This document shows, piece after piece, positions 22,671-38,723 of a stretch of 64,000 nucleotides of DNA (position 1 is the first letter of the stretch; every line of letters starts with the position of its first letter). This DNA is from Rhizobium sp. GTDB lineage: Bacteria > Pseudomonadota > Gammaproteobacteria > Xanthomonadales > Xanthomonadaceae. A program made the translations under genes and the position numbers. The DNA lies in the NCBI GenBank assembly GCA_019459185.1, contig JAIBEO010000017.1, forward strand, positions 5,761-69,760. The letters run 5' to 3'. The notes beneath the pieces are model-generated. The model was not told the DNA's origin. It did not search any database and saw nothing but the letters and a program-made list of their open reading frames with translations.

Positions 22671-24689
22671 TCAGCGGAAATGCGGTACGTCCGGGTAGGC
22701 CGTGAGCACGGGGCCCAGGGCGTCCTTGAGCGGCTCGAGCCAGGGCTCGAAGTGGCGCCAGTGGTCGACGCCGTCGCGGTAGATGGGCTGGCGCACCTGC
22801 TCGGAGCTGGCGGTGCGCACGGGGCGCTTGTTCTCGAAGAAGCGCAGGCAGCCTTCCTCGAAGGGCAGGCCGCAGTAGTCGAGCAGGCGCCGCACCTCGG
22901 CTTCGGTGTCGTCGACCATGGATTCGTAGAACACGCGGTGCACGCGCCCCGGCAGCACGGCGTCGTAGTGCGCCATCAGGCGCACGTAGTCGGCGTAGTA
23001 GCGGCCGATGTCGGCCAGCGAATAGGTGAAGGCCTGGCCGCGGGCGAAGTGCTGCTTGAAGCCCGAGAAGCAGCAGGCCAGGGGGTGCCGGCGGGCGTCG
23101 ATGATGCGCGCGTTCGGCAGCATCAGGTGGATCAGCCCGATGTGCATGAAGTTGTTCGGCATCTTGTCGATGAAGAACGGCGCGCCGGTCTTGCGCTGGA
23201 TGCGGGTGTGCTCGAGGTACTGCTGGCCGAGTTCGCGCAGGCGGGCCGGGTCGAGCGAGGCCAGCACGTCGTGGTAGGGCAGGGACTGGCCGGCCTCGCC
23301 GAGCTTGCGCAGCTCGCGGGTGATCGAGATCACCTCGGGCAGCTCCATGGTGCCTTCCACCGCCGAGTGGCTGGAGAGGATCTGCTCGACCAGGGTGGAG
23401 CCGGCGCGCGGCAGGCCCAGCACGAAGATCGGGTCGGGCTCGGGCGCCCCGGCGCCGGCGCGCGCGGCGAAGAATTCCGGCGTGTAGGTGCGCTCGATCT
23501 TCTCCACCCGGGCCGCGGTGTCGTCGGCCGCGTAGTGCAGCTGGGCGCGGCGCAGCGCGTTGCCCTGGTCGTAATGGCCGAAGGAGGCGGCGTAGTCGGC
23601 GCGGTCTTCGAGCGCCTTGCCCAGCGCGAAGTGCAGGTGCTGCACGTCCTCGGGCGCCAGGCCCGGGCGTGCGAGCTGGGCCTGCATGGCGGCTACGTCT
23701 TCGTCGCTGAACTTGAAGGTCTTGAGGTTGGCCAGGCTCCACCAGACTTCGCCGCAGGAAGGGTCCACCGCCAGGCTGCGGCGGTAGGCGGCGATGGCGC
23801 GGTCGGTGTGGCCGGCGGTCTTGAGCGCGTGGCCCTGGCTGAGCCAGATCTTGGCCTGGCCCGGGTGCTCGCGCAGGATGCCGTCGTAGAGCGCGATGGC
23901 CTGCTCGTAGTCGCCGGTGCGGCACAGCACCACGGCCTTGAGGTTGCGGTAGTTGGGGTTGCGCGGGTCGGTGGCCAGCAGCAGGTCGATCTGCGCCAGC
24001 GCCTCGCGCGGCTTGTTGCCGCGGTGCAGGACCAGGGCGTAGTTCTGGCGCGCGGCCTGGAAGCCGGGTGCGAGTTCCAGGCAGCGCTCGAGCAGGCGCT
24101 CGGCGTCTTCCTGGCGGCCGATGCGCGCGGCCAGCTCGGCCATCATGCGCAGCGCGGCCACGTCGGTGGGCGCGGCCGCGAGGTGTTCGCGCAGCAGCGC
24201 TTCGGCCTTGGGCAGCTCGTTCGCATGCAGCGCCGAGGCGGCGGCCAGCAGGCGCGGGTCGCGGGTGGAGAAGCGCACGTGGCTGGCGTAGGCCTCGTCG
24301 GCGGCCTCGAGATCGCCGGCGGCGGCGAGCTGGTCGCCCAGCGCGCGCCAGGCCTGCGGCAGCCCGGGCTTGAGCCACACGGCGCGGCGCAGCGCGGCGA
24401 TGGCGCCGGCGGTGTCGCCGGCCAGGCCGAGCGCGATGCCCAGTTCATGGTGCGCCAGCGCCCAGTTAGGCTGACTGGCCACCAGCGGCCGCAGCGCGTC
24501 GAGCGCGGGCTGCAGCTGGCCCTGCAGGCGGCGCGAGACCGCCAGAATCAAAACGGCCATCGGGTGTTCGCCGACGGCCGTGATGATTTCGCGGGCTTGT
24601 TCGCCGGCAAGCGCGGGCTGGGTCTCGAGCAGCCGGGTGGCATGCGCGAGCGCTTCGTCCAGCCCGGCGGTGGGTTCGGCGGTGGCCAT
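22671..24689 (-). CDS. TPR-repeat sulfotransferase family protein
   Basis: Multiple TPR helices, then PIFVLGLPRAGSTLVEQIL (5'-PAPS loop), FFIDKMP, IIDARRHP, VFYESMV; alternative GTG start at 24716. Confidence 0.85.
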   Translation of the reverse strand: MATAEPTAGLDEALAHATRLLETQPALAGEQAREIITAVGEHPMAVLILAVSRRLQGQLQPALDALRPLVASQPNWALAHHELGIALGLAGDTAGAIAALRRAVWLKPGLPQAWRALGDQLAAAGDLEAADEAYASHVRFSTRDPRLLAAASALHANELPKAEALLREHLAAAPTDVAALRMMAELAARIGRQEDAERLLERCLELAPGFQAARQNYALVLHRGNKPREALAQIDLLLATDPRNPNYRNLKAVVLCRTGDYEQAIALYDGILREHPGQAKIWLSQGHALKTAGHTDRAIAAYRRSLAVDPSCGEVWWSLANLKTFKFSDEDVAAMQAQLARPGLAPEDVQHLHFALGKALEDRADYAASFGHYDQGNALRRAQLHYAADDTAARVEKIERTYTPEFFAARAGAGAPEPDPIFVLGLPRAGSTLVEQILSSHSAVEGTMELPEVISITRELRKLGEAGQSLPYHDVLASLDPARLRELGQQYLEHTRIQRKTGAPFFIDKMPNNFMHIGLIHLMLPNARIIDARRHPLACCFSGFKQHFARGQAFTYSLADIGRYYADYVRLMAHYDAVLPGRVHRVFYESMVDDTEAEVRRLLDYCGLPFEEGCLRFFENKRPVRTASSEQVRQPIYRDGVDHWRHFEPWLEPLKDALGPVLTAYPDVPHFR

Positions 24690-24764
24690 GGCGGCGGTGG
24701 CGGCTCCGGGGGTCACGGGGTCTTCACCCGAATCTAACGTTGTCGCCGGCCGCGGGATAGTCCC

Positions 24765-26153
24765 TCATAGCCCCCCCAGCAGCCGGTGGGTGAATTCCAG
24801 CGACTGGTCGAAGGCCTCGGCGCCGATGCGCTCGTCCTGGCCGTGCGAGCGGTCGTCGTCCACGTCGTAGGGGATGCCGTTGAACACGTACACCGGCAGG
24901 CCGGCGGCCCGCAGGAACAGGCTGTCGGTGGCGCCGGCCGACATGTAGGGCGCCACCGGGATGGGGCCCCAGAGCGGCGTGGCGGCGTCGCGGATGGCCT
25001 GGAACAGGGCCTCGTCCACCGGCGAGGGCGGGCTGGGCGTGGGTTCGGCCACCCGGCGGATCGTGATGCCCGGATCAGCCACCGCGGCGGCCAGCCAGCG
25101 GTCCACCCGGGCCGGGTCTTCGTCGGGCAGCATCCGGCAGTTCACTGTGGCCCGGGCCAGCTGGGGCAGGGCGTTTTCGGCGTGGCCGCCCTCGAGCAGG
25201 GTGGGGGTGCAGGTGGTGCGCAGCTGGGCGTTGTCGTAGGCCGAGCGGGCGGCCAGGCGGCGCAGGGCGGCTTCGTCCTGCGGCAGCGCGGCGGCGGCGG
25301 CCATGTCGGCGGCGGTGGCGCCGGTTTCGAGTTTCGCCAGGCGGGCGTAGTGGCCGCGGGTGGCGGAATTGGTGCGCAGCGGGAATTCGAAGGCGGCCAG
25401 GCCGGCCAGGCCCTTCGCCAGCCGGTGGATGGCGTTGTCGGGCGTGGGCACCGAGCTGTGGCCGCCGGGGTTGCGCACTTCGAAGGTGTAGCTCAGGTAG
25501 ACCTTCTCGGCGGTCTGCACCGGCAGCACCGCCGGCTGGCCGCCGCGGATTTCGGGGCCGCCGCCGTCGAAGTTGATGGCGTAGGCGGCGTCGAGCAGGT
25601 CGGGGCGGTTCGCCAGCAGCCACTGGATGCCGTTGGCCACGCCGTCTTCCTCGCCGGCGGTGAGCAGCAGCAGGTAGTCGCCGCGCGGCACGGTGCCTTC
25701 GGCGCGCAGGCGCAGGAGCGCGGCGGCCGCGCCGGCGGCGCCGCCCTTGATGTCCATGGTGCCGCGGCCGTAGAGCCAGCCTTCGCGTTCGGTGAGCGCG
25801 AACGGGTCGAGCGTCCAGTCCTCGCGGCGGGCTTCCACCACGTCCAGGTGGGCCATCAGCAGCACCGGCTTGCGCTCGCCGCGGCCACGCAGGCGCAGCA
25901 CCAGGTTCTTGCGCAGCGGGTCGTCGCCGAGCAGCAGCACGTCTTCGCGCGGGAAGCCTTCGGCGAGGAAGCGCGCGGCCAGCTTTTCCGCGGCGGCCGT
26001 GGTGCCGGCGCGGGGCGTGGTGTCGGTTTCGATGAGCAGGCGCAGCAGCTCGCGGCCGCGCGCGCGCTCGTGCTCGGGGGCCTGCGGCGGCGTGGCGCCC
26101 GCCGCGGTCGCGAGCAGCAGGGCCAGGGCGAGCAGGGCGGGGCGGGGCGTCAT
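24765..26153 (-). CDS. Secreted M20/M25/M40 family metallopeptidase/amidohydrolase
   Basis: Signal peptide; LMAHLDVV, GRGTMDIKG, GEED, PGGHSS, HGQDE metal-binding motifs. Confidence 0.88.
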   Translation of the reverse strand: MTPRPALLALALLLATAAGATPPQAPEHERARGRELLRLLIETDTTPRAGTTAAAEKLAARFLAEGFPREDVLLLGDDPLRKNLVLRLRGRGERKPVLLMAHLDVVEARREDWTLDPFALTEREGWLYGRGTMDIKGGAAGAAAALLRLRAEGTVPRGDYLLLLTAGEEDGVANGIQWLLANRPDLLDAAYAINFDGGGPEIRGGQPAVLPVQTAEKVYLSYTFEVRNPGGHSSVPTPDNAIHRLAKGLAGLAAFEFPLRTNSATRGHYARLAKLETGATAADMAAAAALPQDEAALRRLAARSAYDNAQLRTTCTPTLLEGGHAENALPQLARATVNCRMLPDEDPARVDRWLAAAVADPGITIRRVAEPTPSPPSPVDEALFQAIRDAATPLWGPIPVAPYMSAGATDSLFLRAAGLPVYVFNGIPYDVDDDRSHGQDERIGAEAFDQSLEFTHRLLGGL

Positions 26154-26166
26154 GGGCGGGTCCGGG

Positions 26167-27369
26167 TCAGGGGCGTTCGAGCGCCAGCGCCAGGCCCTGG
26201 CCCACGCCCACGCACAGGCTGACCAGGGCGCGGCGTTGGCCGTGGCGGCGCAGCGCGAAGGCGGCGGTCATGGCCAGGCGCGCGCCGCTGGCCCCGAGCG
26301 GATGGCCCAGCGCGATGGCGCCGCCGTTGCCGTTGAGCCGCGGGCTGTCGTCGGGCAGGCCCAGGGCCTGGGCGCAGGCCAGCACCTGGGCGGCGAAGGC
26401 TTCGTTGATTTCGATGCGGTCGAAGTCGTCCAGCGCCAGGCCCAGGCGCGGCAGCAGGCGGTTTATCGCCGGCACCGGGCCGAAGCCCATCACCCGCGGT
26501 TCCACGCCGGCCGAGGCCGCGCCGAGCACGCGTGCCAGCGGCTGCAGGCCATGCCGGGCCACGGCTTCGCCCGAGGCCAGCAGCACCGCGGCGGCGCCGT
26601 CGTTGAGGCCCGAGGCATTGCCGGCGGTGATGCTGGTGCCCGCGCCGAGCAGCGGCGGCAGCGCGGCCAGGGCTTCCTCCGTGGTGTCGGGGCGCAGGTG
26701 TTCGTCGAGCGAAACGGTTGCAGCGCGCCTTCCCTGGCCCGCCACGATCGGGGAGATCTCCTCGGCCAGCCAGCCTTCGCGCTGCGCGTGGGCGGTGCGC
26801 TGCTGGCTGCGCCAGGCGAAGGCGTCCTGGCGCTCGCGGCTGACGTGGTGTTCGCGCGCCAGGTTTTCGGCGGTCTGGCTCATCGGGTCCACGCCATGGC
26901 GGGCTTCGAAGGCCGGGTTCACGAAGCGCCAGCCCAGCGTGGTGTCCTGCAGCTGCTGCTCGCGGCCGAAGGCGGCGCCGGCCTTGGCCATCACGTAAGG
27001 CGCGCGGCTCATGCTTTCCACGCCGCCGGCCAGGACGAGGTCGGCGTCGCCCACGGCAATGGCGCGCGTGGCCTGGGCGATGGCCTCCAGGCCGGAGGCG
27101 CAGAGCCGGTTCACCGTCACCGCCGGCACCGTCACGGGCAGGCCGGCCAGCAGCGTGGCCATGCGCGCGACGTTGCGGTTGTCTTCGCCGGACTGGTTGG
27201 CGCAGCCGAGCATCACTTCATCCAGCGCCGCCCAGTCGAGCGACGGGTGGCGCGCCATGAGCGCCGCGATCGGCATGGCCGCCAGGTCATCGGCGCGCAC
27301 GGTGGACAGCGCGCCGCCGTAGCGGCCGAAGGGCGTTCGGGTGGCGTCGACCAGGAAAACCTCAGCCAC
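26167..27369 (-). CDS. pcaF: 3-oxoadipyl-CoA thiolase (PcaF/PaaJ-type)
   Basis: RTPFGRYGG, CANQSGEDNRNVARM, TVNRLCASG, DTTLGWRFVN, NEAFA, GHPLGASG, LCVGVGQG; GTG start. Confidence 0.85.
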   Translation of the reverse strand: MAEVFLVDATRTPFGRYGGALSTVRADDLAAMPIAALMARHPSLDWAALDEVMLGCANQSGEDNRNVARMATLLAGLPVTVPAVTVNRLCASGLEAIAQATRAIAVGDADLVLAGGVESMSRAPYVMAKAGAAFGREQQLQDTTLGWRFVNPAFEARHGVDPMSQTAENLAREHHVSRERQDAFAWRSQQRTAHAQREGWLAEEISPIVAGQGRRAATVSLDEHLRPDTTEEALAALPPLLGAGTSITAGNASGLNDGAAAVLLASGEAVARHGLQPLARVLGAASAGVEPRVMGFGPVPAINRLLPRLGLALDDFDRIEINEAFAAQVLACAQALGLPDDSPRLNGNGGAIALGHPLGASGARLAMTAAFALRRHGQRRALVSLCVGVGQGLALALERP

Positions 27370-28177
27370 GTCCGTGCCCCTGCAGCGCCGGCAGCCAGCC
27401 GCCCTGGCGGATGGCGCGTTCGATGGTCATCTGGGTCTCGTGCAGGATTGGCAGGATCTCCTCGACCGCACGCTTCTTCGAATCGGGCCGGTAGGGCATG
27501 CCCACGTTGAGCCCGGCCACCACTCGGCCATCGGCGGTGCGCACGGGCAGGGCGATCGAGCACAGGCCCAGTTCCAGTTCCTGCGCGGTCAGTGCGTAAC
27601 CCTGTTCGCGCACGCGCTTGAGCTCGGCCTTGAGCGCGCGCGCCTCGGTGAGCGTGTGCGCGGTGTGGGCGCTGGGCGGGTGCTGTTCCAGCCAGGCGTC
27701 GAGTTCGGCCGGCTCCAGCGCCGCCAGCATGACGCGGCCCATCGAGGTGGCGGCGGCCGGCAGCCGCGCACCCACGCCCAGGGCGATGCTCATCACGCGC
27801 CTCACCGGCACGCGCAGCACGTAAACGATGTCGGCGCCGTCGAGCACGGCCATCGAGCACGACTCGCCCACGCGCTGGGCCATCTGCTCCATGGCCTGCT
27901 GGGCCAGCTCGGTGAGGTCGAGCGAGGACAAGTAGCTGTAGCCCAGCTCCAGCACCCGCGGGGTGAGGAAAAACTGCCGGCCGCGCTGGCCGACGTAACC
28001 CAGGTGCTGCAGCGTCATCAGGCTGCGGCGCACCACCGCGCGCGACAGGCCGGTGCGGGTGGCCACGTCGGACAGGCTGGGCGTGGGCAGGTCGCGGCTG
28101 AAGGCGCGCAGCACGCTCAGGCCGCGTGCCAGCGACTGCACGTAGTCGGCGCTGTCCTCGAAAGGTTCGTCGGCCAT
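27362..28177 (-). CDS. pcaR: IclR family regulator, PcaR/PobR subtype
   Basis: DYVQSLARGLSVL, LTPRVLELGYSYLSS, GARLPAAATSMGRVML, QELELGLCSIA; adjacent to pcaF. Confidence 0.8.
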   Translation of the reverse strand: MADEPFEDSADYVQSLARGLSVLRAFSRDLPTPSLSDVATRTGLSRAVVRRSLMTLQHLGYVGQRGRQFFLTPRVLELGYSYLSSLDLTELAQQAMEQMAQRVGESCSMAVLDGADIVYVLRVPVRRVMSIALGVGARLPAAATSMGRVMLAALEPAELDAWLEQHPPSAHTAHTLTEARALKAELKRVREQGYALTAQELELGLCSIALPVRTADGRVVAGLNVGMPYRPDSKKRAVEEILPILHETQMTIERAIRQGGWLPALQGHGRG

Positions 28178-28226
28178 CGGGGCCCTTGGACTGGTTGACA
28201 GGCCGAGCCTAGGAGGATTCCAATGA

Positions 28227-28262
28227 GTTCGCAATACGAATTGATGTTCGATTACCGAACAT
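28227..28262. promoter_or_regulatory. Tandem PcaR/IclR-type operators in the divergent promoter region
   Basis: GTTCG-CAATA-CGAAT (28227-28241) and perfect ATGTTCG-ATTAC-CGAACAT (28244-28262); TTGACA at 28195-28200 upstream on the plus strand. Confidence 0.75.
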
Positions 28263-28287
28263 TTCAGGGTCCCGGGGGGAGATTCCG

Positions 28288-29604
28288 TTGCACAGCCGCG
28301 AGCGCGACAGCGTCCTGCACACCTGGTGCGTGCCCGCGATGTGGGACGCGCCCACCGTGGTCGGCGGCCGCGGCGCCCGGCTGGTGCTGGAAGGCGGCCG
28401 CGAGCTGCTCGACATGTCCAGCCTGGCCGAGTGCAGCAACCTGGGCCACCAGCACCCGGCCGTGGTGCGCGCCATCCGAGAGCAGGCCGAACGCCTGTGT
28501 TTCGTCACCAACGGCTGGGGCGCCACGCCGCGCCGCGAACTGGCCGAACGCCTGCTGGAAAAGGCTGGCTTCGAAGGCGGCCGCGTCTACTTCACCCTGG
28601 GCGGCGCCGACGCCAACGAACACGCGGTTAAGTTCGCGCGCCAGGCCCGCGACCTGCCGCAGGGCCTGGTGCTCACCCGCGAGCGCAGCTACCACGGCGC
28701 CAGTTACGCCACCATGGCGCTGTCGGACGACGAGCGCACCCGCCGCCAGGTGGACCCCGCCGCCTTCCAGGTGCTGCACGTGCCGGCGCCCTACGCCTAC
28801 CGCTGCCCCTTTGGCAGCCGCGACGACGCCAGCTGCGGCGAACGCGCGGCCGAGGCCATCGGCAGGCAGATCGAATCGCATGGCGCCGACACCGTGGCCG
28901 CCGTGCTGGTGGAAACCAACGCCGGCACCAACGGCATCGTCGCGCCCGACACCTACTGGCCGCGCCTGCGTGCGCTGACCCGCGACAACGGCGTGCTGCT
29001 CATTGCCGACGAGGTGATGTCGGGCTTCGGCCGCTGCGGCGAGTGGTTCGCCTGGCAGCGTTTCGGAGCGGAAGGACGCCCCGACCTGATGACGGTGGCC
29101 AAGGGCCTCACCGGCGCGCACCTGCCGCTGGGCGCCGTGCTGCTTTCCGCCGACGTGGCGGCGGTGCTGGAACCGCAGCAGCTGCAGACCGGCCTCACCT
29201 ACGCCGGCCACCCGCTGTGCTGCGCCGCCGGCCTGGCGGCGCTGCAGGCCTACGAGGACGAGGGGCTCATCGAGCGTTCGCGCCGGCTGGGCGCGCAGAT
29301 GTTCGCCACGCTCAAGGGCCTGCAGGCGCGCCATGCCGTCATCGGCGACGTGCGCGGCGGCCACGGCCTGTTCGCGGTGCTCGAGCTGGTGTCCGACCGC
29401 GCCACGCGCGCGCCGCTGGCGCCCTGGCCGCAGGTGCCGTCGGGCCTGCGCGCGCTGGTGGCCAAGGCGCGCGAGGCCGGCGTCTCCTTCGCCGTGCGCG
29501 GCAACCTGGTGATCCTGGCGCCGCCGCTGGTGATCGAAGAAAACGACCTGGCCGACGCCCTCGGCCTGCTGGACCGCCTGCTGGGCGAAATGGACGCCGC
29601 ATGA
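28288..29604 (+). CDS. Class-III PLP aminotransferase (omega/beta-amino-acid type)
   Basis: SNLGHQHP, GGADANEHA, RSYHG, LIADEVMSGFGRCG, DLMTVAKG (PLP Lys), GLTYAGHP; TTG start after a GGGGGAG RBS. Confidence 0.88.
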   Translation: MHSRERDSVLHTWCVPAMWDAPTVVGGRGARLVLEGGRELLDMSSLAECSNLGHQHPAVVRAIREQAERLCFVTNGWGATPRRELAERLLEKAGFEGGRVYFTLGGADANEHAVKFARQARDLPQGLVLTRERSYHGASYATMALSDDERTRRQVDPAAFQVLHVPAPYAYRCPFGSRDDASCGERAAEAIGRQIESHGADTVAAVLVETNAGTNGIVAPDTYWPRLRALTRDNGVLLIADEVMSGFGRCGEWFAWQRFGAEGRPDLMTVAKGLTGAHLPLGAVLLSADVAAVLEPQQLQTGLTYAGHPLCCAAGLAALQAYEDEGLIERSRRLGAQMFATLKGLQARHAVIGDVRGGHGLFAVLELVSDRATRAPLAPWPQVPSGLRALVAKAREAGVSFAVRGNLVILAPPLVIEENDLADALGLLDRLLGEMDAA

Positions 29605-31169
29605 GCTTCAAGCTGACCTACGCCACCATGTTCAACCCGCCGGCGGAAATGCACAGCCGCTTCGACGAGGCTCTGCGGGAGGTCGAGCAGTCGCTGGGTG
29701 CCCGCCACCGGCTGCACCTCAACGGCGAGGACGTCGCCGGCGTGGAGGACGACGAACGCCGCAGCCCCATCGACCAGCGCCGCGTGCTGGGCCACTTCGC
29801 CGTGGCCAGCGCCAACCAGGCGCGGCAGGCGGTGGAAGCAGCGCACGCCGCCTTCCCGGCCTGGCGCGCCACGCCCTGGCCCGAGCGCGTGCGCCTGCTC
29901 AAGCGCGTGGCGGCGCTGATCGAGGAGCGCGTGTACCTCATCGCCGCCGCGCTCACGCTGGAAGTGGGCAAGAACCGCATGGAAGCGCTGGGCGAAGTGC
30001 AGGAAACCGCCGACTTCTTCCGCCTCTACGCCGAGGAGTTCGAGCACAGGAACGGCTTCGACATCCCGCTGCCCGACGACCCGCTCGAGGGCTGGTCCTC
30101 GCACAACCGCAGCGTGCTGCGGCCGCACGGCGCCTGGGTGGTGATCGCGCCCTTCAACTTCCCGTTCGCGCTGGCCGGCGGCCCGGTGGCCGCGGCCCTG
30201 GTGACCGGCAACACCGTGGTCTTCAAGGGCGCCAGCGAAACGCCCTGGGCCGGCCGCCTGCTGGCCGACTGCCTGCGCGACGCCGGTTTCCCGCGCGGCG
30301 TGTTCCACTTCCTCAACGGCAGCGGCAACGAAGTGGGCCAGGCCCTGGTGCACCACCCGCGCACGGCCGGCATCACCTTCACCGGTTCCTTCGACGTGGG
30401 CATGCGGATCTACCGCAGCCTGGCCAACGGCCCCTGGCCGCGGCCCTGCATCACCGAGATGGGCGGCAAGAACGCCTGCATCGTCACCGCCAACGCCGAC
30501 CTCGAGCGCGCCGCCACCGGCATCGTGCGTTCGGCCTTCGGCATGGGCGGGCAGAAGTGTTCGGCGCTCTCGCGCCTGTACGTGGACGAGACGGTGGCCG
30601 AGGCGCTGGTGCTGAAGCTCAAGGCCAGGATGGCGGCCATTGCCCTGGGCGATCCCTGCCGGCAGGAAAACTGGCTGGGCCCGGTCACCACGCGCCGTGC
30701 CTACGACAACTTCGCGCGCTGCGTGGCGGCGATCACCCGCGACGGCGGCCGCGTGCTGGCCGGCGGCGAACGGCTCACCGAAGGCGAGCTGGCCCATGGC
30801 TTCTACGTGCAGCCGACGCTGGCCGAGGCGCCGGCCACGCACCCGCTGTTCCGCGAGGAAATGTTCCTGCCCATCCTGATGCTGCACCGCGTGCAGGACA
30901 TCGGCCAGGCCGTGCAGCTGGCCAATGAATCGCCACTGGGCCTCACCGCCGGCTGCTACGGCAGCGACGCCGACCTGGCCTATTTCTGGGACAACATCGA
31001 GGCCGGCGTCACTTACGCCAACCGGCCGCAGGGCGCCACCACCGGCGCCTGGCCGGGCTACCAGCCCTTCGGCGGCTGGAAGGGCTCGGGCAGCACCGGT
31101 AAGGCCATCGCCTCCTTCTATTACCTGGCCCAGTACCAGCGCGAGCAGTCGCGCACGGTGGTCGAATGA
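29601..31169 (+). CDS. Aldehyde dehydrogenase, 1-pyrroline-5-carboxylate dehydrogenase (RocA/PutA-ALDH)-like
   Basis: IAPFNFP, ITFTGS, TEMGGKN (Glu), GQKCSA (Cys), EEMFLP, YANR..GATTGAWPGYQPFGGWKGSG; ATGA overlaps with both neighbours. Confidence 0.85.
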   Translation: MSFKLTYATMFNPPAEMHSRFDEALREVEQSLGARHRLHLNGEDVAGVEDDERRSPIDQRRVLGHFAVASANQARQAVEAAHAAFPAWRATPWPERVRLLKRVAALIEERVYLIAAALTLEVGKNRMEALGEVQETADFFRLYAEEFEHRNGFDIPLPDDPLEGWSSHNRSVLRPHGAWVVIAPFNFPFALAGGPVAAALVTGNTVVFKGASETPWAGRLLADCLRDAGFPRGVFHFLNGSGNEVGQALVHHPRTAGITFTGSFDVGMRIYRSLANGPWPRPCITEMGGKNACIVTANADLERAATGIVRSAFGMGGQKCSALSRLYVDETVAEALVLKLKARMAAIALGDPCRQENWLGPVTTRRAYDNFARCVAAITRDGGRVLAGGERLTEGELAHGFYVQPTLAEAPATHPLFREEMFLPILMLHRVQDIGQAVQLANESPLGLTAGCYGSDADLAYFWDNIEAGVTYANRPQGATTGAWPGYQPFGGWKGSGSTGKAIASFYYLAQYQREQSRTVVE

Positions 31170-32020
31170 AGACGCCGCGGCTGTCGCTGGCCGAGGCGAT
31201 GGCGGACTTCGTGCGCGACGGCGACTGCGTCGCGCTCGAGGGTTTCACCCACCTGATCCCGTTCGCGGCCGGGCATGAGCTGATCCGCCAGGGCCGGAAG
31301 AACCTGCACCTGGTGCGCATGACGCCGGATCTCATCTACGACCAGCTGATCGGCATGGGCTGCGCGCGCCGGCTCACCTTCTCCTGGGGTGGAAATCCCG
31401 GCGTCGGTTCGCTGCACCGCCTGCGCGACGCCGTCGAACACGCCTGGCCAGCGCCGCTGGAGCTCGACGAGCACAGCCACGCCGGCATGGCCGCCGCCTA
31501 CACCGCCGGCGCCGCGAAACTTCCCTTCGGCCTGCTGCGCGGCTACCTGGGCACCGACCTGCCGGCGAACAACCCGCGCATCCGCCGGGTGGAATGCCCG
31601 TTCACCGGCGAAATGCTGGCCGCGGTTCCCGCCATCAACCCTGACGTCACCGTGCTGCACGCGCAGCGCGCCGACCGCAAGGGCAATGTCTCGATCCACG
31701 GCATCGTCGGCGCCCAGCGCGAAGCCGCGCTGGCCGCGAAGAAGCTGGTCGTCACCGTGGAAGAGCTGGTGGACGAACTGCCGCCGGCCATGAACGCCGT
31801 GGTGCTGCCGCACTGGGTGGTCAGCGCCGTGGTGCACTGCCCGGGCGGCGCCTACCCGTCCTACGCGCACGGCTGCTACGAGCGCGACAACGCCTTCTAC
31901 CAACGCTGGGACGCCATCGCCCGCGACCGCGCCGCCTTCCAGGCCTGGATGCACGAGCACGTGCGGGGCCTGCCCGACCACGGCGCCTACCTGGCCTGCC
32001 TGAAAGCGAAGGCCGCATGA
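31166..32020 (+). CDS. 3-oxoadipate CoA-transferase subunit A (CatI/GctA-like family)
   Basis: ALEGFTHLIP, VRMTPDLIYD, FSWGGNPGVGSLHRLRDAVE, characteristic of CatI-type subunits. Confidence 0.85.
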   Translation: MKTPRLSLAEAMADFVRDGDCVALEGFTHLIPFAAGHELIRQGRKNLHLVRMTPDLIYDQLIGMGCARRLTFSWGGNPGVGSLHRLRDAVEHAWPAPLELDEHSHAGMAAAYTAGAAKLPFGLLRGYLGTDLPANNPRIRRVECPFTGEMLAAVPAINPDVTVLHAQRADRKGNVSIHGIVGAQREAALAAKKLVVTVEELVDELPPAMNAVVLPHWVVSAVVHCPGGAYPSYAHGCYERDNAFYQRWDAIARDRAAFQAWMHEHVRGLPDHGAYLACLKAKAA

Positions 32021-32802
32021 GCGCCTGGACCCGCGACGAAATGATGACCGTGGCCGCGGCCCGCCTGCTGTGGGACGACTGCGTGTGTTTCGTCGGCATC
32101 GGCCTGCCCAGCGCCGCCTGCAACCTGGCGCGGCTGACGCACGCGCCCGACGTGGTGCTGGTCTACGAATCGGGCACGCTGGGCACCCGCCCCGACGTGC
32201 TGCCGCTGTCGATCGGCGACGGCGAACTGGCCGACACCGCTGCCTGCGTGGTGCCGCTGCCGGAAGTGTTCGCCTTCTACCTGCAGGGCGGCCGGGTGGA
32301 CGTGGGTTTCCTGGGCGCCGCGCAGATCGATCGCTTCGGCAACCTCAATTCCACCGTCATCGGCGATTACGCGCAGCCGTCCACCCGCCTGCCCGGTGCC
32401 GGTGGCGCGCCCGAGATCGCCACGCACGCGCGCCAGACCTTCGTGCTGATGAAGGCCAGCCCGCGCAGCTTCGTCGAACAGCTCGACTTCCGCACCAGCG
32501 CCGGTTTCCTGGGCGGCGACGGCGAACGCGCGCGTTGCGGTGCGCCCGGCGGCGGCCCGCAGGCGGTGATCACCGACTTCGGCGTGTTGCGGCCGATGCC
32601 GGGGCGCCAGGAGCTGCAGCTGGTGGCGCTGTACGAAGGCGTGGACGTGGCCGAAGCCCGGGCCGCCGTCGGCTGGCCGCTGGCCGTGGCCGACACGCTC
32701 GAACGCCTGCCGCCGCCAACCGAGACCGAACTCACCGCCCTGCGCCAGCTGCAGGCCCGCACCGCCGAGGCGCACCGACGCCCGGTGCGGCTGCCGGGCT
32801 GA
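32017..32802 (+). CDS. 3-oxoadipate CoA-transferase subunit B (CatJ/GctB-like family)
   Basis: FVGIGLPS, VLVYESGT (catalytic Glu), FLGAAQIDRFGNLNST, RLPGAGGAPEIA. Confidence 0.85.
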   Translation: MSAWTRDEMMTVAAARLLWDDCVCFVGIGLPSAACNLARLTHAPDVVLVYESGTLGTRPDVLPLSIGDGELADTAACVVPLPEVFAFYLQGGRVDVGFLGAAQIDRFGNLNSTVIGDYAQPSTRLPGAGGAPEIATHARQTFVLMKASPRSFVEQLDFRTSAGFLGGDGERARCGAPGGGPQAVITDFGVLRPMPGRQELQLVALYEGVDVAEARAAVGWPLAVADTLERLPPPTETELTALRQLQARTAEAHRRPVRLPG

Positions 32803-32833
32803 GCGCGCGACACCACTTCACGAAGGACCCGCC

Positions 32834-34156
32834 ATGAGCCATCCGCACCTCCACACCGAACTGCCGGGTCCCAAGGCCCGCGCCATGATCGAGCGCGACG
32901 CGGCGGTCATTTCGCCGTCCTACCCGCGCGACTACCCGTTCGTGATGTCGCACGGCCGCGGCACCGAGGTCTGGGACGTCGACGGCAACCGCTTCCTCGA
33001 CTTCATGGCCGGCATCGCCGTCTGCGCCACTGGCCACGCGAATCCGGCGGTGGTGAAGGCGGTGCAGGGCGCGGCGGAAAAATTCCTGCACATCTCCAGC
33101 GACTACTGGCACGAGGAAATGGTGGGCCTGGGCGAACGCCTGGCGGCGGTGGCGCCGATGGGCGAACCGGCCATGAGCTTCATCTGCCAATCCGGCACCG
33201 AGGCGGTGGAAGGCGCGCTCAAGCTGGCGCGCTACGTCACCGGGCGGCCGCGCTTCATCGGCTTCCTGGGCGGTTTCCACGGTCGCACCATGGGCTCGCT
33301 CAGCTTCACCTCCAGCAAGTACACCCAGCAGAAGGGCTTCGCCACCACGCTGGCCGGCGTCACCCACGTGCCTTACCCGAACCCGTACCGGCCGCTGTTC
33401 GCCGGCGATGACCAGGGCGAGGCGGTGCTGGAGTACATCCGCATGCTGTTCCAGCGCAGCGTGCCGCCGAGCGAAGTGGCGGCCATGCTGATCGAACCCA
33501 TGCAGGGCGAGGGCGGCTACCTGACGCCGCCCGACGGTTTCCTGGCCGGCCTGCGCGCGCTCTGCGACGAACACGGCATCCTTCTCATTTTCGACGAAGT
33601 GCAGTCGGGCATCGGCCGTACCGGCCGCATGTTCGCCAGCGAACACTGGGGCGTGCAGCCCGACATCATGAGCCTGGCCAAGGGCCTGGGCTCGGGCCTG
33701 CCCATCGGCGCGGTGGTGGCGAAGCGCAGCCTGATGCAGCAGTGGAAGCGCGGTGCGCACGGCAACACCTACGGCGGCAATCCCATCACCTGCGCGGCCG
33801 CCAATGCCACGCTCGACCTGGTGCGCGGCGGCCTGGTGGACAACGCGGCGCGCGTGGGCGAGCACTTCCTGGCCCGCCTGCGCGAGCTGCAGCGCGACTA
33901 CCCCTGCATCGGCGACGTGCGCGGCAAGGGCCTGTGGATCGGCATGGAGCTGGTGGAAAACGACGCGAAGAAAACCCCGGCCGCGGCCCTGTGCGACGCG
34001 GTGGTCACGCGCGCCTTCCACAACGGCCTGCTGCTGCTGTCCTGCGGCACCAGCACGGTGCGCTTCATGCCGCCGCTGACGGTGACGGTGGCGGAAGTGG
34101 ACGAGGCGATGGCGATGCTGAAAGCCAGCCTCGACCAGGCATTGGCGGGGCGCTGA
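32834..34156 (+). CDS. Class-III PLP aminotransferase (GabT/ornithine-lysine omega-aminotransferase-like)
   Basis: LPGPKARAMIERD, FLDFMAGIAV..TGH, QSGTEAVEGALK, FHGRT, EPMQGEGG, IFDEVQSGIGRTG, SLAKG, GNTYGGNP. Confidence 0.88.
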   Translation: MSHPHLHTELPGPKARAMIERDAAVISPSYPRDYPFVMSHGRGTEVWDVDGNRFLDFMAGIAVCATGHANPAVVKAVQGAAEKFLHISSDYWHEEMVGLGERLAAVAPMGEPAMSFICQSGTEAVEGALKLARYVTGRPRFIGFLGGFHGRTMGSLSFTSSKYTQQKGFATTLAGVTHVPYPNPYRPLFAGDDQGEAVLEYIRMLFQRSVPPSEVAAMLIEPMQGEGGYLTPPDGFLAGLRALCDEHGILLIFDEVQSGIGRTGRMFASEHWGVQPDIMSLAKGLGSGLPIGAVVAKRSLMQQWKRGAHGNTYGGNPITCAAANATLDLVRGGLVDNAARVGEHFLARLRELQRDYPCIGDVRGKGLWIGMELVENDAKKTPAAALCDAVVTRAFHNGLLLLSCGTSTVRFMPPLTVTVAEVDEAMAMLKASLDQALAGR

Positions 34157-34159
34157 GCC

Positions 34160-36682
34160 ATGCGCACCCGCCTGCTCCTGCTGCTCGCGGCCCTCCTGCC
34201 GGCCCCGGCGGCGCAGGCGGGGCGGGAACCGGTGCTGCCCCAGGTTAAGCTGCCGCACAGCTACTACTGGCGCGAACTCTACCTGCCGCAGCTCACCACC
34301 GGCCCCTCGGCCGCGGCCTTCCTGCCCGATGGCCAGGGGCTGGTGTACAGCATGGAGGGTTCGCTCTGGCGCCAGGCGCTGGGTGAAGACCTGGCCACCG
34401 AACTCACGCATCCGCGCGGCGCCTACGACCACCAGCCCGACGTGGCCCCCGACGGCGCCAGCGTGGTGTTCACCCGCTACGACGGCGCGGCGTTGGAGCT
34501 GTGGCGCCTGGACCTGCGCAGCGGCCGCGAGCAGCGGCTGACCAGCGAAGGCGCGGTGAACGTGGAGCCGCGGATTGCCCCTGATGGCCGCCGCCTGGCC
34601 TGGGTGTCCACCCGCGGCAACGGCAACTTCAACCTGTACGTGGCCGAGCTTGGCCCCGCCGGCCTGTCGAACGTGCACGCGCTGCTGGGCGAACGCCGCA
34701 GCGCCATCGACCGCTACTACTACGCGCCGGTGGACCACGCCATCAATCCCTCGTGGTCGCCCGACGGCGAAACTCTCTATTACGTCGCCAACCCGGAAGT
34801 GGCCTGGGGCAGCGGCGATGTGTGGGCCGTGCCGGTGGCCGACCCGGCCGCACGGCGCCGCGTTCATGCCGAAGAAACGAGCTGGGCCGCCCGCCCCGAA
34901 CTCGCGCCCGACGGCAAGCGCCTGCTGTATTCGGGCTACCGTGGCCGCCAGTGGCACCAGCTGTGGCTGACCACGCCCCGGGGCGTGCCGCCGCTGCCGC
35001 TGAGCTTCGGCGAATTCGACCGGCGTTATGCGCGCTGGTCGCCCAACGGCCAGCGCATCGCCTACGTGGACAACCGCGACGGCGGCACCGCGCTGCGGGT
35101 GATGGATGTCATTGGCGGCCGCACCGAAACCGTGCAGGCCGCGCGCCGCGAAACCTTGTCGCCGCAGGGCACGCTGGTGCTCGACATCCGCGACGGTGCC
35201 GGCCAGCGCGTGCCGGCGCGCGTGTCGGTCACCGGCAGCGACGGCCGCGCGCACGCCCCGGCCGAGGCCTGGCTGCACGCCGACGACGGCTTCGACCGCG
35301 CGACCCAGGCCACCGAGACGCATTATTTCCACTGCGCGCCGCCCTGCCGGCTGCAACTGCCCACCGGCGCGGCGCAGGTCACGGTGCGGCGTGGTTTCGA
35401 AACCCTGCCGTGGAGCGCCACCGTCGACGTGGCGCCGGGCCTGGGCAAACCCGTCATCGCGCGCCTGCAGGCGCAGCCGCTGCCGACGGAATATGGCGAG
35501 TTCGTCAGCGCCGACCTGCACGTGCACATGAACTACGGCGGCCACTACCGGCACACGCCGGAAACGCTGGTGCGCCAGGCCGAGGCCGAAGACCTCGACA
35601 TCGTGCACAACCTGGTGGTGAACAAGGAAGAACGCATCCCCGACATCGCCGCCTTCCGCACGGGCGTGGACCCGGCCAGCAACGCCGCCGTCACCCTGCT
35701 GCAGGGCCAGGAGTACCACACCAGCTTCTGGGGCCACCTGGGCCTGCTGCAGCTGCGCAGCCACTACCTCACGCCCGATTTTTCCGCCTACCGTCACACC
35801 GCACTGGCCAGTCCGTACCCCCACAACGGCGTCATCGCCGATCTCGCGCACGAACAGGGCGCGCTGGTGGGTTACGTGCATCCCTTCGACTGGGATCCGG
35901 ACCCGGCGAAGGAAACCGGCCTGAGCCACCAGCTGCCCGCCGACGCCATGCACCGCAAGGCGGACTACATCGAGGTCGTGGGTTTTTCCGACCACCGCGC
36001 CACCGCCGGCGTCTGGTACCGCCTGCTCAACCTGGGCCTGCGCGTTTCCGCCGGCGCCGGCACCGATGCGATGGCGAACTACGCCTCGCTGCGCGGCCCG
36101 GTCGGACTTAACCGCGTGTTCCTGGACACCGCGGGCAGCCGCGACCCGGACACCGCGCTGGCCGCGCTGCGCAAGGGCGAAGGTTTCGCCAGCAACGGCC
36201 CGCTGCTGGGCCTGCTGGTGGACGGCCGCAAGCCGGGCGCCGAACTGCCGGCGGGCCGGCACGCCTTCCGCCTGGCCCTGCGTTCGCCGGTGCCGGTGCA
36301 GCACCTGGAGCTGGTGCACAACGGCCGCGTGGTGAAGGCCTTCGATCTCAAGGGCGACCGCCGCACGCTCGATGCCGAAGGCGAACTCGAGCTCGGCGAC
36401 GGCTGGCTGCTGCTGCGCGCCTGGAACGAACAGGCCGACCCGGGCGTGCTCGACCTTTACCCGTACGCCACCACCAACCCGGTGTGGATCGGCAGCGGCC
36501 GCGCCAGCGAAAACGTGCGCGGCGACGCGGCCTATTTCGTCGCCTGGCTCGACCGCGTGATTGCCAACGCCCGGGCGCGCGAGCCCGACTTCAACGACGC
36601 CGGCGAATTCGGCGCCACGCTCGACTACCTGCGCGCCGCCCGCGCGCGTTACGCCGCCCTGGCCGCGGGGAGCACGGAATGA
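34160..36682 (+). CDS. Secreted CehA/McbA-family (PHP-like) metallohydrolase with N-terminal TolB/PD40 beta-propeller
   Basis: Signal peptide; repeated P.W/.SPDG motifs; DLHVHMNY, GQEYH, YVHP, AGTD metal-ligand pattern. Confidence 0.72.
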   Translation: MRTRLLLLLAALLPAPAAQAGREPVLPQVKLPHSYYWRELYLPQLTTGPSAAAFLPDGQGLVYSMEGSLWRQALGEDLATELTHPRGAYDHQPDVAPDGASVVFTRYDGAALELWRLDLRSGREQRLTSEGAVNVEPRIAPDGRRLAWVSTRGNGNFNLYVAELGPAGLSNVHALLGERRSAIDRYYYAPVDHAINPSWSPDGETLYYVANPEVAWGSGDVWAVPVADPAARRRVHAEETSWAARPELAPDGKRLLYSGYRGRQWHQLWLTTPRGVPPLPLSFGEFDRRYARWSPNGQRIAYVDNRDGGTALRVMDVIGGRTETVQAARRETLSPQGTLVLDIRDGAGQRVPARVSVTGSDGRAHAPAEAWLHADDGFDRATQATETHYFHCAPPCRLQLPTGAAQVTVRRGFETLPWSATVDVAPGLGKPVIARLQAQPLPTEYGEFVSADLHVHMNYGGHYRHTPETLVRQAEAEDLDIVHNLVVNKEERIPDIAAFRTGVDPASNAAVTLLQGQEYHTSFWGHLGLLQLRSHYLTPDFSAYRHTALASPYPHNGVIADLAHEQGALVGYVHPFDWDPDPAKETGLSHQLPADAMHRKADYIEVVGFSDHRATAGVWYRLLNLGLRVSAGAGTDAMANYASLRGPVGLNRVFLDTAGSRDPDTALAALRKGEGFASNGPLLGLLVDGRKPGAELPAGRHAFRLALRSPVPVQHLELVHNGRVVKAFDLKGDRRTLDAEGELELGDGWLLLRAWNEQADPGVLDLYPYATTNPVWIGSGRASENVRGDAAYFVAWLDRVIANARAREPDFNDAGEFGATLDYLRAARARYAALAAGSTE

Positions 36683-38709: not shown

Positions 38710-38723
38710 GCCGCGCCGCGCCC

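Follow-up and report, generated by a model that had tools for sequence, protein, structure and literature searches.

We analysed a 64-kb stretch of contig JAIBEO010000017.1 (GenBank assembly GCA_019459185.1, Rhizobium sp., placed by GTDB in the Xanthomonadaceae), hereafter the window, in which the last two enzymes of the beta-ketoadipate pathway and their regulator lie together with two class III aminotransferases and an aldehyde dehydrogenase (ALDH). The beta-ketoadipate pathway is the textbook funnel for aromatic compounds, and to our knowledge no aliphatic or amino-acid branch leads into it. An original prediction, made from the window alone, had described the cluster as lower beta-ketoadipate genes fused into an aminotransferase/ALDH operon and had proposed a route from beta-lysine to 3-oxoadipate. 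The host is an Arenimonas species whose genome has a size of 3.1 Mb and is 99.96% complete, the G+C content of the window is about 70%, and the ALDH of the operon shares 96% protein identity with that of Arenimonas malthae CC-JY-1. The cluster comprises the following features, in which P5CDH denotes 1-pyrroline-5-carboxylate (P5C) dehydrogenase and AT1 and AT2 the first and second aminotransferase.

26167-27369, minus strand: pcaF, 3-oxoadipyl-coenzyme A (CoA) thiolase (TIGR02430, 623.6 against a cut-off of 597; NF006551, 626.1 against 605)
27362-28180, minus strand: pcaR, IclR-family regulator of the PcaR/PcaU/PobR subfamily (TIGR02431, 309.5 against 284.75; IclR HTH and effector domains, PF09339 and PF01614)
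28227-28260, divergent promoter region: two PcaR-type operator boxes, GTTCGCAATACGAAT at 28227-28241 and GTTCGATTACCGAAC at 28246-28260
28288-29604, plus strand: AT1, class III aminotransferase, PRK06062-like (PF00202; NF004718, 397.6, below the cut-off of 472)
29601-31169, plus strand: P5CDH-like (RocA-type) ALDH (PF00171; all P5CDH equivalog models below cut-off)
31166-32020, plus strand: catI/pcaI, CoA-transferase subunit A (PF01144)
32017-32802, plus strand: catJ/pcaJ, CoA-transferase subunit B (PF01144, 130.6 bits)
32834-34156, plus strand: AT2, class III aminotransferase resembling GabT and ornithine omega-aminotransferases (NF004426 (PRK05769), 577.8 against 552)

The end of pcaR overlaps the start of pcaF by 8 nucleotides (nt), and the two genes are predicted to be co-transcribed. 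In the rightward direction, ATGA overlaps that can be read in the sequence connect AT1 to the ALDH gene (29601-29604), the ALDH gene to catI (31166-31169) and catI to catJ (32017-32020). AT2 starts 31 nt after catJ, in a gap that holds a GAAGGA ribosome-binding site, and the next gene, encoding a TolB/PHP hydrolase, follows AT2 after 3 nt. All of the operon genes and junctions are present as the original prediction had placed them.

An arrangement of this kind goes far beyond what chance would give. Relatives of the ALDH occur in at least 595 species genomes, and the 80 best related loci, to which the locus counts below refer, mostly show the same gene set in the same order, in several phyla. 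The dominant order is AT1-ALDH-catI-catJ-AT2. The operon recurs in the Lysobacterales, Steroidobacteraceae, Acidobacteriota, Verrucomicrobiota and others, with gene set and order kept across at least four phyla, and occurs in rearranged form in a lineage whose named members include Myxococcota. Conservation of the set in other genomes, a point raised in the original prediction, is thus borne out. The catJ gene is always paired with catI, pcaF adjoins the operon in 23 loci and pcaR is divergent from it in 28, across phyla. Cultured carriers include Dyella japonica, Dyella lutea, Rhodanobacter umsongensis, Lysobacter niastensis, L. yangpyeongensis and Arenimonas malthae.

Several variants of the cluster delimit its core. 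At locus L029, catJ-pcaF-AT1-ALDH form one strand run. A Steroidobacteraceae group has the arrangement pcaR / ALDH-catI-catJ-AT2-APC-S58, with a permease (APC) and an aminopeptidase (S58) gene and no AT1. At L017 the operon also lacks AT1; here the S58 gene comes first and overlaps the start of the ALDH gene, with a histamine-dehydrogenase-like gene upstream of the operon. In about eight loci the order is AT1-ALDH-AT2-hydrolase, with no catIJ, and ALDH-AT2 pairs without CatIJ exist. The cassette is kept in distant relatives at about 49% ALDH identity, and the contexts of nine distant ALDHs, of which seven represent clusters and two are related to the representative with 49% identity, contained two cassette variants and no lysine 2,3-aminomutase (KamA). 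Locus L097 reads catIJ-SSF-AT-ALDH-AT, with a PRK07483-type transaminase in place of AT1. On L106, a 683-kb metagenome contig, ALDH-AT2-AT1 is followed by a ScoAB/PcaIJ-type CoA-transferase of another family, which scores above the cut-offs for "3-oxoacid CoA-transferase" (TIGR02429, 252 against 128.5; TIGR02428, 263 against 243.6); named members of this ALDH lineage include Polyangia, Nannocystaceae and Longimicrobiales. Since an unrelated 3-oxoacid CoA-transferase occupies the same slot, the activated acid should be a 3-oxoacid. The invariant core is ALDH plus AT2, nearly always accompanied by a 3-oxoacid CoA-transferase and in many cases also by PcaF and PcaR.

The original prediction had noted that the window holds no upper-pathway gene, and the same is true of the whole genome. 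A profile search of the host genome, which did not include maleylacetate reductase, returned no match to PcaH or any other intradiol dioxygenase, the PcaH model being one that also picks up other members of that class. No PcaD was found above cut-off in the genome, the best match being a generic hydrolase at 84 bits, and no PaaA was found. The host is therefore without a known source of 3-oxoadipate. We extended the comparison to 30 other genomes with the ALDH cluster (31 carriers including the host). CatI is encoded in 25 of these 30, almost always as a single copy, and PcaF scores above cut-off in 26; PcaH does so in none of them, and weak intradiol matches occur in four only. In 151 evenly drawn genomes of the host's order, five have the ALDH and CatI is directly adjacent in all five, whilst CatI is found in 3 of the 146 ALDH-negative genomes, the two good matches (G146 and G162) lying beside pcaHG. 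Within one bacterial family, the same lower module is joined to two alternative upper modules, a protocatechuate branch and an aminotransferase/ALDH branch. An aromatic origin of 3-oxoadipate was rejected on the ring-cleavage and PcaD negatives in the host, the 0 of 30 result for PcaH and the positive controls G146 and G162. The phenylacetate pathway, considered as a reason for the presence of PcaF, was rejected for lack of PaaA.

No curated NCBIfam model exists for CoA-transferases of the B13/S. meliloti type, and the assignment of CatI rests on orthology. CatI matches 215 plasmid records. It is 66.9% identical to subunit A of the Pseudomonas veronii pPVG21 cluster pcaQ-pcaH-pcaG-...-iclR-[CoA-transferase A-B]-pcaF-pcaB-pcaD-pcaC and 70-71% identical to PcaI of Sinorhizobium meliloti pSymB, encoded near pobA in a region for which a genetic characterisation of pcaIJF has been reported. 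When 65 CatI sequences were placed in a maximum-likelihood tree, the two references fell within the diversity of the operon CatIs, sister to a 31-member clade that holds the CatI of the window, and a Steroidobacteraceae clade and an Acidobacteriota/Verrucomicrobiota clade branch outside them. With the references nested among the operon proteins, there is no sign of a separate, neofunctionalised CatI clade. CatIJ is thus orthologous to the bona fide 3-oxoadipate:succinyl-CoA transferase, and would be expected to have this activity.

Of the 31 PcaR/operon intergenic regions, 24 contain the motif GTTCG-N5-CGAA(C/T) with at most one substitution; its background rate is 0.09 per kb over all loci. 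The box-bearing regions come from Lysobacterales, Verrucomicrobiota, Acidobacteriota and Steroidobacteraceae. GTTCG-N5-CGAAC corresponds to the PcaR consensus of the P. putida site. The boxes are predicted to be PcaR operators of the divergent promoters, with 3-oxoadipate as the predicted effector. The cluster shares with the pcaR-pcaIJ-pcaF/catIJF systems of Pseudomonas putida, Pseudomonas sp. B13 and S. meliloti pSymB the same CoA-transferase (67-71%), thiolase, IclR-type PcaR and operator type, and would yield the same products, succinyl-CoA and acetyl-CoA. It differs in that the host genome lacks the ring-cleavage and lactone-processing upper pathway and in that the CoA-transferase genes are located inside an operon for two aminotransferases and an ALDH; from these two differences it follows that 3-oxoadipate must come from an aliphatic amine. 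We consider it likely that the operon makes 3-oxoadipate from an amine. Taken together, the missing upper pathway, the co-occurrence of CatI with the ALDH, the PcaR boxes and the orthology of CatIJ uphold the claim that lower beta-ketoadipate genes have been functionally fused to aminotransferase/ALDH genes and do not serve an aromatic pathway, and the search for ring-cleavage genes that went with it came back empty in the host and, for PcaH above cut-off, in the 30 other carriers.

The ALDH is most similar to families of L-glutamate gamma-semialdehyde (P5C) dehydrogenases, at scores far below their cut-offs (NF002852, 390.1 against 648; TIGR01237, 355.0 against 659.65), and reaches 255.6 bits with the model for piperideine-6-carboxylate dehydrogenase (P6CDH; NF050084, cut-off 730). 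Its closest solved relatives, 3QAN (294 bits) and 1UZB (286 bits), are P5CDHs of the RocA type. The ALDH retains the catalytic Cys-Ser as well as the TGA in the loop that anchors the carboxylate. The anchor region is altered, with three extra residues just before the loop and WPG in place of (L/I)VG after it. This suggests that the enzyme is P5CDH-like in its mode of action yet forms a separate subfamily. No ortholog was found in a search of plasmids, where the top match is 43.7% identical. At 45% identity, an ALDH (L101/L102, 10001-11557) is encoded between a proline-racemase-family gene and DAO-type oxidases, on an actinobacterial contig with a Pup ligase nearby. These ALDHs probably belong to a hydroxyproline-type pathway and mark the functional boundary of the subfamily.

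The resemblance to P5CDHs raises the possibility that one transcript carries two unrelated functions. ALDH and AT2, with or without AT1, would convert ornithine to glutamate in the manner of RocD and RocA, or lysine via 2-aminoadipate to 2-oxoadipate, and CatIJ, PcaF and PcaR would scavenge foreign 3-oxoadipate or acetoacetate. Such a division would account for the top families of the ALDH, for the archaeal ornithine/lysine-type omega-aminotransferase that is the top solved relative of AT2, and for the ALDH-AT2 pairs that lack CatIJ. It would also suit a neighbourhood with many secreted peptidases, a homolog of Xaa-Arg/Lys dipeptidases and a basic-amino-acid permease, and a possible 2-oxoadipate/glutaryl-CoA module elsewhere in the host. 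However, catIJ sits between the ALDH and AT2 genes with overlapping stop and start codons, the co-occurrence of CatI and ALDH is near one-to-one in the order (5/5 against 3/146), and the gene set survives both rearrangement and non-orthologous replacement. PcaR boxes lie in the promoter of the aminotransferase operon, and the ALDH falls below every curated P5CDH and P6CDH cut-off. We regard two separate functions as very unlikely. As for 2-oxoadipate, the end product of the lysine epsilon-aminotransferase (LAT) route, we rejected it as a substrate of CatIJ on chemical grounds, as it is not a beta-keto acid and no thiolysis is possible.

We further characterized the two aminotransferases by comparison with curated families and solved structures. 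The closest solved relative of AT1 is the taurine:2-oxoglutarate aminotransferase 6JIX (256 bits), with putrescine/polyamine transaminases scoring lower, at about 185 bits; 6JIX is an enzyme that acts on beta-positioned amines of the taurine/beta-alanine type. An AT1 ortholog is absent genome-wide from eight carriers, which have the Steroidobacteraceae-type arrangement without AT1. AT1 is a replaceable accessory feeder outside the invariant core, as judged from these genomes and from the substitution at L097. AT2 has Pyrococcus PH1423 (7VNO, 359 bits) as its closest solved relative, and the family whose cut-off it passes, NF004426, is one of mixed, mostly archaeal omega-aminotransferase and racemase members. 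It fails the curated cut-offs of ornithine and 4-aminobutyrate (GABA) aminotransferases, with 361.1 bits against 506.65 for GabT (TIGR00700). In an alignment with E. coli PuuE and PH1423, its HGRT, QGEGG, DEVQ, AKG and VRF motifs are conserved; by the residue roles of E. coli GabT, these carry the catalytic Lys and the Arg/Glu/Arg dicarboxylate-binding set. AT2 thus resembles ornithine/lysine omega-aminotransferases and keeps the dicarboxylate-binding residues of GabT. Homology does not tell which transamination step belongs to AT1 and which to AT2.

What acid is activated can be narrowed down from the gene set. Among the recurrent neighbours in the 80 loci there is no acyl-CoA dehydrogenase, hydratase or hydroxyacyl-CoA dehydrogenase, whilst the thiolase is linked. 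A thiolase without beta-oxidation genes, together with two unrelated 3-oxoacid CoA-transferases in the same role, indicates that the activated acid is most probably a beta-keto acid already, and the orthology of CatI points to 3-oxoadipate. If the keto acid derives from a beta-amino acid and one carboxylate is made by the ALDH, the simplest compound is 3-amino-6-oxohexanoate, with 1-pyrroline-5-acetate as its cyclic form. As a homologue of glutamate semialdehyde/P5C with one carbon more, it would suit a P5CDH-like enzyme. Beta-lysine (3,6-diaminohexanoate, or beta-homo-ornithine) is the obvious diamino precursor and fits every enzyme. A permease of the basic amino acid/polyamine family and an S58 enzyme, from a family that acts on N-terminal beta- or D-amino acids, both encoded further along the window, would fit a basic beta-amino acid as well.

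We therefore propose, at slightly less than even confidence, that the operon is an upper branch that takes an amino compound, with beta-lysine as the best guess, via 3-oxoadipate to succinyl-CoA and acetyl-CoA. Beta-lysine would be imported through the APC permease, perhaps after extracellular release by the S58 beta-aminopeptidase-like enzyme and other secreted hydrolases. An aminotransferase would remove the omega-amino group to give 3-amino-6-oxohexanoate in equilibrium with 1-pyrroline-5-acetate, which the P5CDH-like ALDH would oxidise to 3-aminoadipate (beta-homoglutamate). Transamination of 3-aminoadipate would yield 3-oxoadipate, an unstable beta-keto acid that CatIJ would trap as its CoA ester and PcaF would thiolyse to succinyl-CoA and acetyl-CoA. 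AT1, or another omega-transaminase in other lineages, would feed the diamino acid into the core of ALDH, AT2 and CoA-transferase, and PcaR, sensing 3-oxoadipate, would control the divergent promoters. The route would copy, with one carbon more (beta-homo series), the path from ornithine and proline to glutamate and 2-oxoglutarate. The beta-lysine scheme of the original prediction is the only simple one we found that uses every enzyme and needs no other, although no linked KamA singles out beta-lysine as the substrate. The fixed succession of two aminotransferases that it had drawn needs revision, since eight carriers lack an AT1 ortholog and the core is ALDH and AT2, mostly with CatIJ; its idea of an alternative entry compound fits better. 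We found no publication in the full-text literature on a pathway with this gene set, in agreement with the original prediction, nothing on 3-aminoadipate or its synonyms, nothing relevant on beta-lysine in combination with 3-oxoadipate or beta-ketoadipate, and no catabolic data from Dyella fitness work (N515DRAFT).

That beta-lysine is the physiological substrate is a tentative and somewhat doubtful assignment, and a number of observations weigh against the scheme as a whole. No KamA-like lysine 2,3-aminomutase gene occurs in the 80 loci, and the KamA family is absent from 15 of the 31 carrier genomes. The only KamA-family gene of the host encodes EpmB (contig C188, 52427-53371; 73% identical to Xanthomonas sacchari EpmB), so that the organism would make (R)-beta-lysine only for modification of elongation factor P (EF-P), and beta-lysine would have to come from outside. 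We know of no report of beta-lysine as an abundant nutrient. In the eight carriers without AT1, a single aminotransferase must perform both steps or the entry compound differs. Four AT1-ALDH-AT2 carriers are without any B13-type CatI and their PcaF stands alone; in three carriers lacking CatI that were checked, no CoA-transferase was found beside the lone PcaF. The ALDH subfamily appears in another, hydroxyproline-like context at 45% identity already, and the secreted peptidases and the Xaa-Arg/Lys-type dipeptidase homolog near the operon suggest ordinary protein-derived basic amino acids. The catabolism of L-lysine via endogenous beta-lysine was rejected as a general explanation, because KamA is missing from the 80 loci and from half of the carriers and the host copy is EpmB.

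The modular pattern, with ALDH and AT2 as core and AT1 and catIJ as options, is at least as simply explained by the conversion of a diamine or omega-amino acid to a plain dicarboxylate. Here, cadaverine derived from lysine would be converted to 5-aminopentanal by AT1 or an amine dehydrogenase, to 5-aminovalerate by the ALDH, to glutarate semialdehyde by AT2, to glutarate by the ALDH and to glutaryl-CoA by CatIJ. Glutaryl-CoA dehydrogenase (GcdH) and beta-oxidation enzymes encoded elsewhere would lead on to acetoacetyl-CoA, which PcaF would cleave; a C6 version would proceed from 6-aminohexanoate via adipate to 3-oxoadipyl-CoA. Carriers without CatIJ and a dispensable AT1 pose no difficulty for such a conversion. 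The permease family includes lysine/cadaverine, arginine/agmatine and putrescine/ornithine antiporters, a histamine/polyamine-type amine dehydrogenase is often encoded nearby, AT2 keeps all GabT-type residues, and some sources label B13-type CoA-transferases as glutaconate-CoA-transferase-like. A GcdH, which such a route would need, may be present: the host encodes an acyl-CoA dehydrogenase (contig C4, 5354-6517) that looks GcdH-like by its motif, there being no curated NCBIfam model, and gene content therefore does not tell against the route. Set against this, CatI is orthologous to, and mixed in the tree with, bona fide 3-oxoadipate transferases, the distant L106 variant uses a ScoAB/PcaIJ-type 3-oxoacid transferase, and the regulator and its boxes are of the PcaR type. 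The PcaF-scoring thiolase is the only downstream CoA-ester enzyme linked, and the recurrent neighbours in the 80 loci include no beta-oxidation genes. The ALDH resembles P5CDHs and not GabD/DavD, a single ALDH would have to perform two different oxidations, and natural C6 omega-amino acids are not known to us. The glutarate/adipate-type explanation is weakened by these points, and we judge it unlikely. In the same part of the host genome, outside the window (C4, 5354-8787), a gene for a fused E1 alpha/beta 2-oxoacid dehydrogenase comes after the GcdH-like one, and the two may form a module from 2-oxoadipate via glutaryl-CoA to crotonyl-CoA.

We compared the proposed route with characterised pathways that use related enzymes. 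The cadaverine/5-aminovalerate route (PatA/SpuC, PatD, DavT, DavD, GcdG, GcdH) likewise alternates aminotransferase and ALDH steps, activates a dicarboxylate with CoA and is associated with basic-amine transporters, but employs GabD/DavD-type ALDHs, a family III CoA-transferase and LysR/GntR regulators where the operon has a P5CDH-like ALDH, a PcaIJ ortholog and PcaR. The RocD/RocA ornithine/arginase route resembles it in enzyme families and order, with omega-transamination, a cyclic imine/semialdehyde, NAD-dependent oxidation to an amino-dicarboxylate and deamination to a keto-diacid, and in both cases APC permeases are linked. However, the operon ALDH and AT2 fail the RocA and the ornithine and GABA aminotransferase cut-offs, the ALDH has a changed anchor loop, the substrates proposed here carry one methylene more (beta-homo series), and the beta-keto acid product would need a CoA-transferase and a thiolase. 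The route through lysine epsilon-aminotransferase, P6CDH and 2-aminoadipate transaminase (Flavobacterium lutescens, Streptomyces, P. putida AmaB, PP_4108) shows the same pattern of aminotransferase, cyclic-imine dehydrogenase and aminotransferase, but its product, 2-oxoadipate, is no substrate for a 3-oxoacid CoA-transferase/thiolase pair, and the operon ALDH scores lower with piperideine-6-carboxylate than with P5CDH models. Aerobic beta-lysine catabolism in Pseudomonas B4, studied by Barker and co-workers, reportedly begins with acetylation at N6 and proceeds from N6-acetyl-beta-lysine to acetoacetate/acetyl-CoA and 4-aminobutyrate with a different gene set. That route likewise has beta-lysine as its starting compound, forms a beta-keto acid by transamination of the beta-amino group and uses CoA-dependent cleavage; the operon differs in having no acetyltransferase or cytoplasmic deacetylase, and the omega-amino end would become a carboxylate, as in 3-aminoadipate and 3-oxoadipate. 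In Bacillus subtilis, genes for a class III aminotransferase and a two-subunit CoA-transferase likewise occur together, in the uncharacterised yodT-yodS-yodR-yodQ-yodP-kamA operon.

In several phyla and hundreds of species, then, the last two beta-ketoadipate enzymes and their regulator are connected with aminotransferases and a P5CDH-like dehydrogenase, and none of the examined carriers has PcaH above cut-off. Known enzyme families probably make up a new upper branch here, attached to a pathway that is itself known. If the proposed route is correct, it would be a new catabolic pathway with 3-aminoadipate and pyrroline-5-acetate as new intermediates, and three large enzyme subfamilies, so far uncharacterised, would gain a function. 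In soil metagenomes, pcaIJF could then no longer be taken automatically as a sign of "aromatic degradation potential", and the route could provide enzymes for biocatalysis of beta-amino acids and the adipate family.

The operon is flanked in the window by the following genes.

24765-26153, minus strand: secreted M20 family peptidase (NF006596, 513.6 against 349; PF01546)
34160-36682, plus strand: secreted TolB-propeller and PHP (CehA/McbA-family) metallohydrolase (NF038032, 227 against 80; PD40 repeats)
36676-38709, plus strand: secreted S9 prolyl-oligopeptidase-family peptidase with a PD40 propeller (PF00326, PF07676)
38724-39863, minus strand: secreted S58 (DmpA/BapA-type) aminopeptidase (PF03576, 385 bits)
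39921-40988, plus strand: GbcA-like Rieske oxygenase alpha subunit (glycine betaine monooxygenase GbcA, a weak match at 143 bits against a cut-off of 670)
41003-42268, plus strand: secreted amidohydrolase ("Caulobacter Xaa-Pro dipeptidase" model, 495.3, just below the cut-off of 500)
42284-43588, plus strand: APC permease, basic amino acid/polyamine antiporter family (TIGR00905, 242.9, and NF007929, 243.9, both below cut-off)
43581-45665, plus strand: histamine-dehydrogenase-like amine dehydrogenase (histamine dehydrogenases 6DE6/3K30 at 780-783 bits, 6DE6 at 783)

Several of these genes travel with the operon. The TolB/PHP hydrolase follows AT2 in 38 of the 80 loci, the S9 peptidase is syntenic in about 20, and the M20 peptidase adjoins PcaF in 11 and is conserved in the Lysobacterales loci. 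The S58 gene, whose solved relatives are DmpA (1B65, 357 bits) and a beta-peptidyl aminopeptidase (3N2W, 286 bits), is linked in 18-19 of the 80 loci and lies inside the operon in Steroidobacteraceae. Orthologs of the APC permease, which is probably an importer, directly follow AT2 in 31-32 loci. In the window, the APC gene overlaps the amine dehydrogenase gene by 8 nt. At L018 and L028 this pair adjoins the operon, and in Dyella and Rhodanobacter 10-14 kb separate the pair from it; the amine dehydrogenase is found in 14 of the 30 carriers, often at that distance. It is a frequent neighbour and not a core part, possibly an alternative feeder or a separate amine module. The APC/amine dehydrogenase pair could also be an uptake and oxidation module for histamine, agmatine or diamines in its own right.

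These neighbours bear on the question of entry, as the core chemistry could be fed by a compound other than beta-lysine: pyrrolidine-2-acetate (homoproline), an N-methylated or betaine form of it that passes through a flavoprotein or Rieske enzyme, free 3-aminoadipate, or a beta-amino-acid residue released by the S58 enzyme. AT1 is exchangeable or absent, as an alternative entry would allow, and at L017 the S58 gene is translationally coupled to the ALDH gene with the histamine-dehydrogenase-like gene upstream in the place of AT1. In the window, the GbcA-like Rieske oxygenase and the amine dehydrogenase genes flank the permease gene, and the solved S58 enzymes are D-aminopeptidases or beta-peptidyl aminopeptidases. 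However, the amine dehydrogenase is limited to 14 of 30 carriers and a Rieske gene lies near only 7 of the 80 loci, neither gene is encoded near the operon in several AT1-less genomes, the closest match of the amine dehydrogenase is histamine dehydrogenase, which acts on primary amines, and not an N-methylproline demethylase, and the natural abundance of such compounds is undocumented. Entry through these compounds instead of beta-lysine therefore seems improbable to us.

A broader version of the beta-lysine proposal would see the operon as part of a general "beta-homo amino acid" catabolic hub in soil bacteria that mirrors the proline/ornithine/glutamate hub. Its intermediates would be 1-pyrroline-5-acetate and 3-aminoadipate, its exit 3-oxoadipate into the tricarboxylic acid cycle, and it would be fed interchangeably by AT1, other omega-transaminases, the histamine-dehydrogenase-like enzyme, and secreted S58 beta-aminopeptidases and PHP hydrolases. 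We offer this as a speculation that is rather unlikely to hold in full. Were it true, it would imply growth on streptothricin-type antibiotics, the osmolyte N-acetyl-beta-lysine, remnants of beta-lysylated EF-P and beta-peptides, and a natural role for the so far orphan DmpA/BapA family.

The remaining observations concern individual neighbours. The Rieske gene stands alone, with no reductase gene seen beside it, and is syntenic with the S58 gene in seven loci. The curated name "Xaa-Pro dipeptidase" for the amidohydrolase may mislead; according to work by Raushel, the family, with Cc2672 as the characterised member, is said in fact to cleave Xaa-Arg/Lys dipeptides. Upstream of the M20 peptidase, a 681-residue protein with TPR and sulfotransferase regions is encoded at 22671-24716. 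Its gene and those of the PHP/TolB hydrolase, the S9 peptidase and the S58 aminopeptidase (22671-24716 and 34160-39863) are syntenic with the operon from Lysobacterales to Steroidobacteraceae, forming a conserved island of secreted hydrolases and a sulfotransferase.

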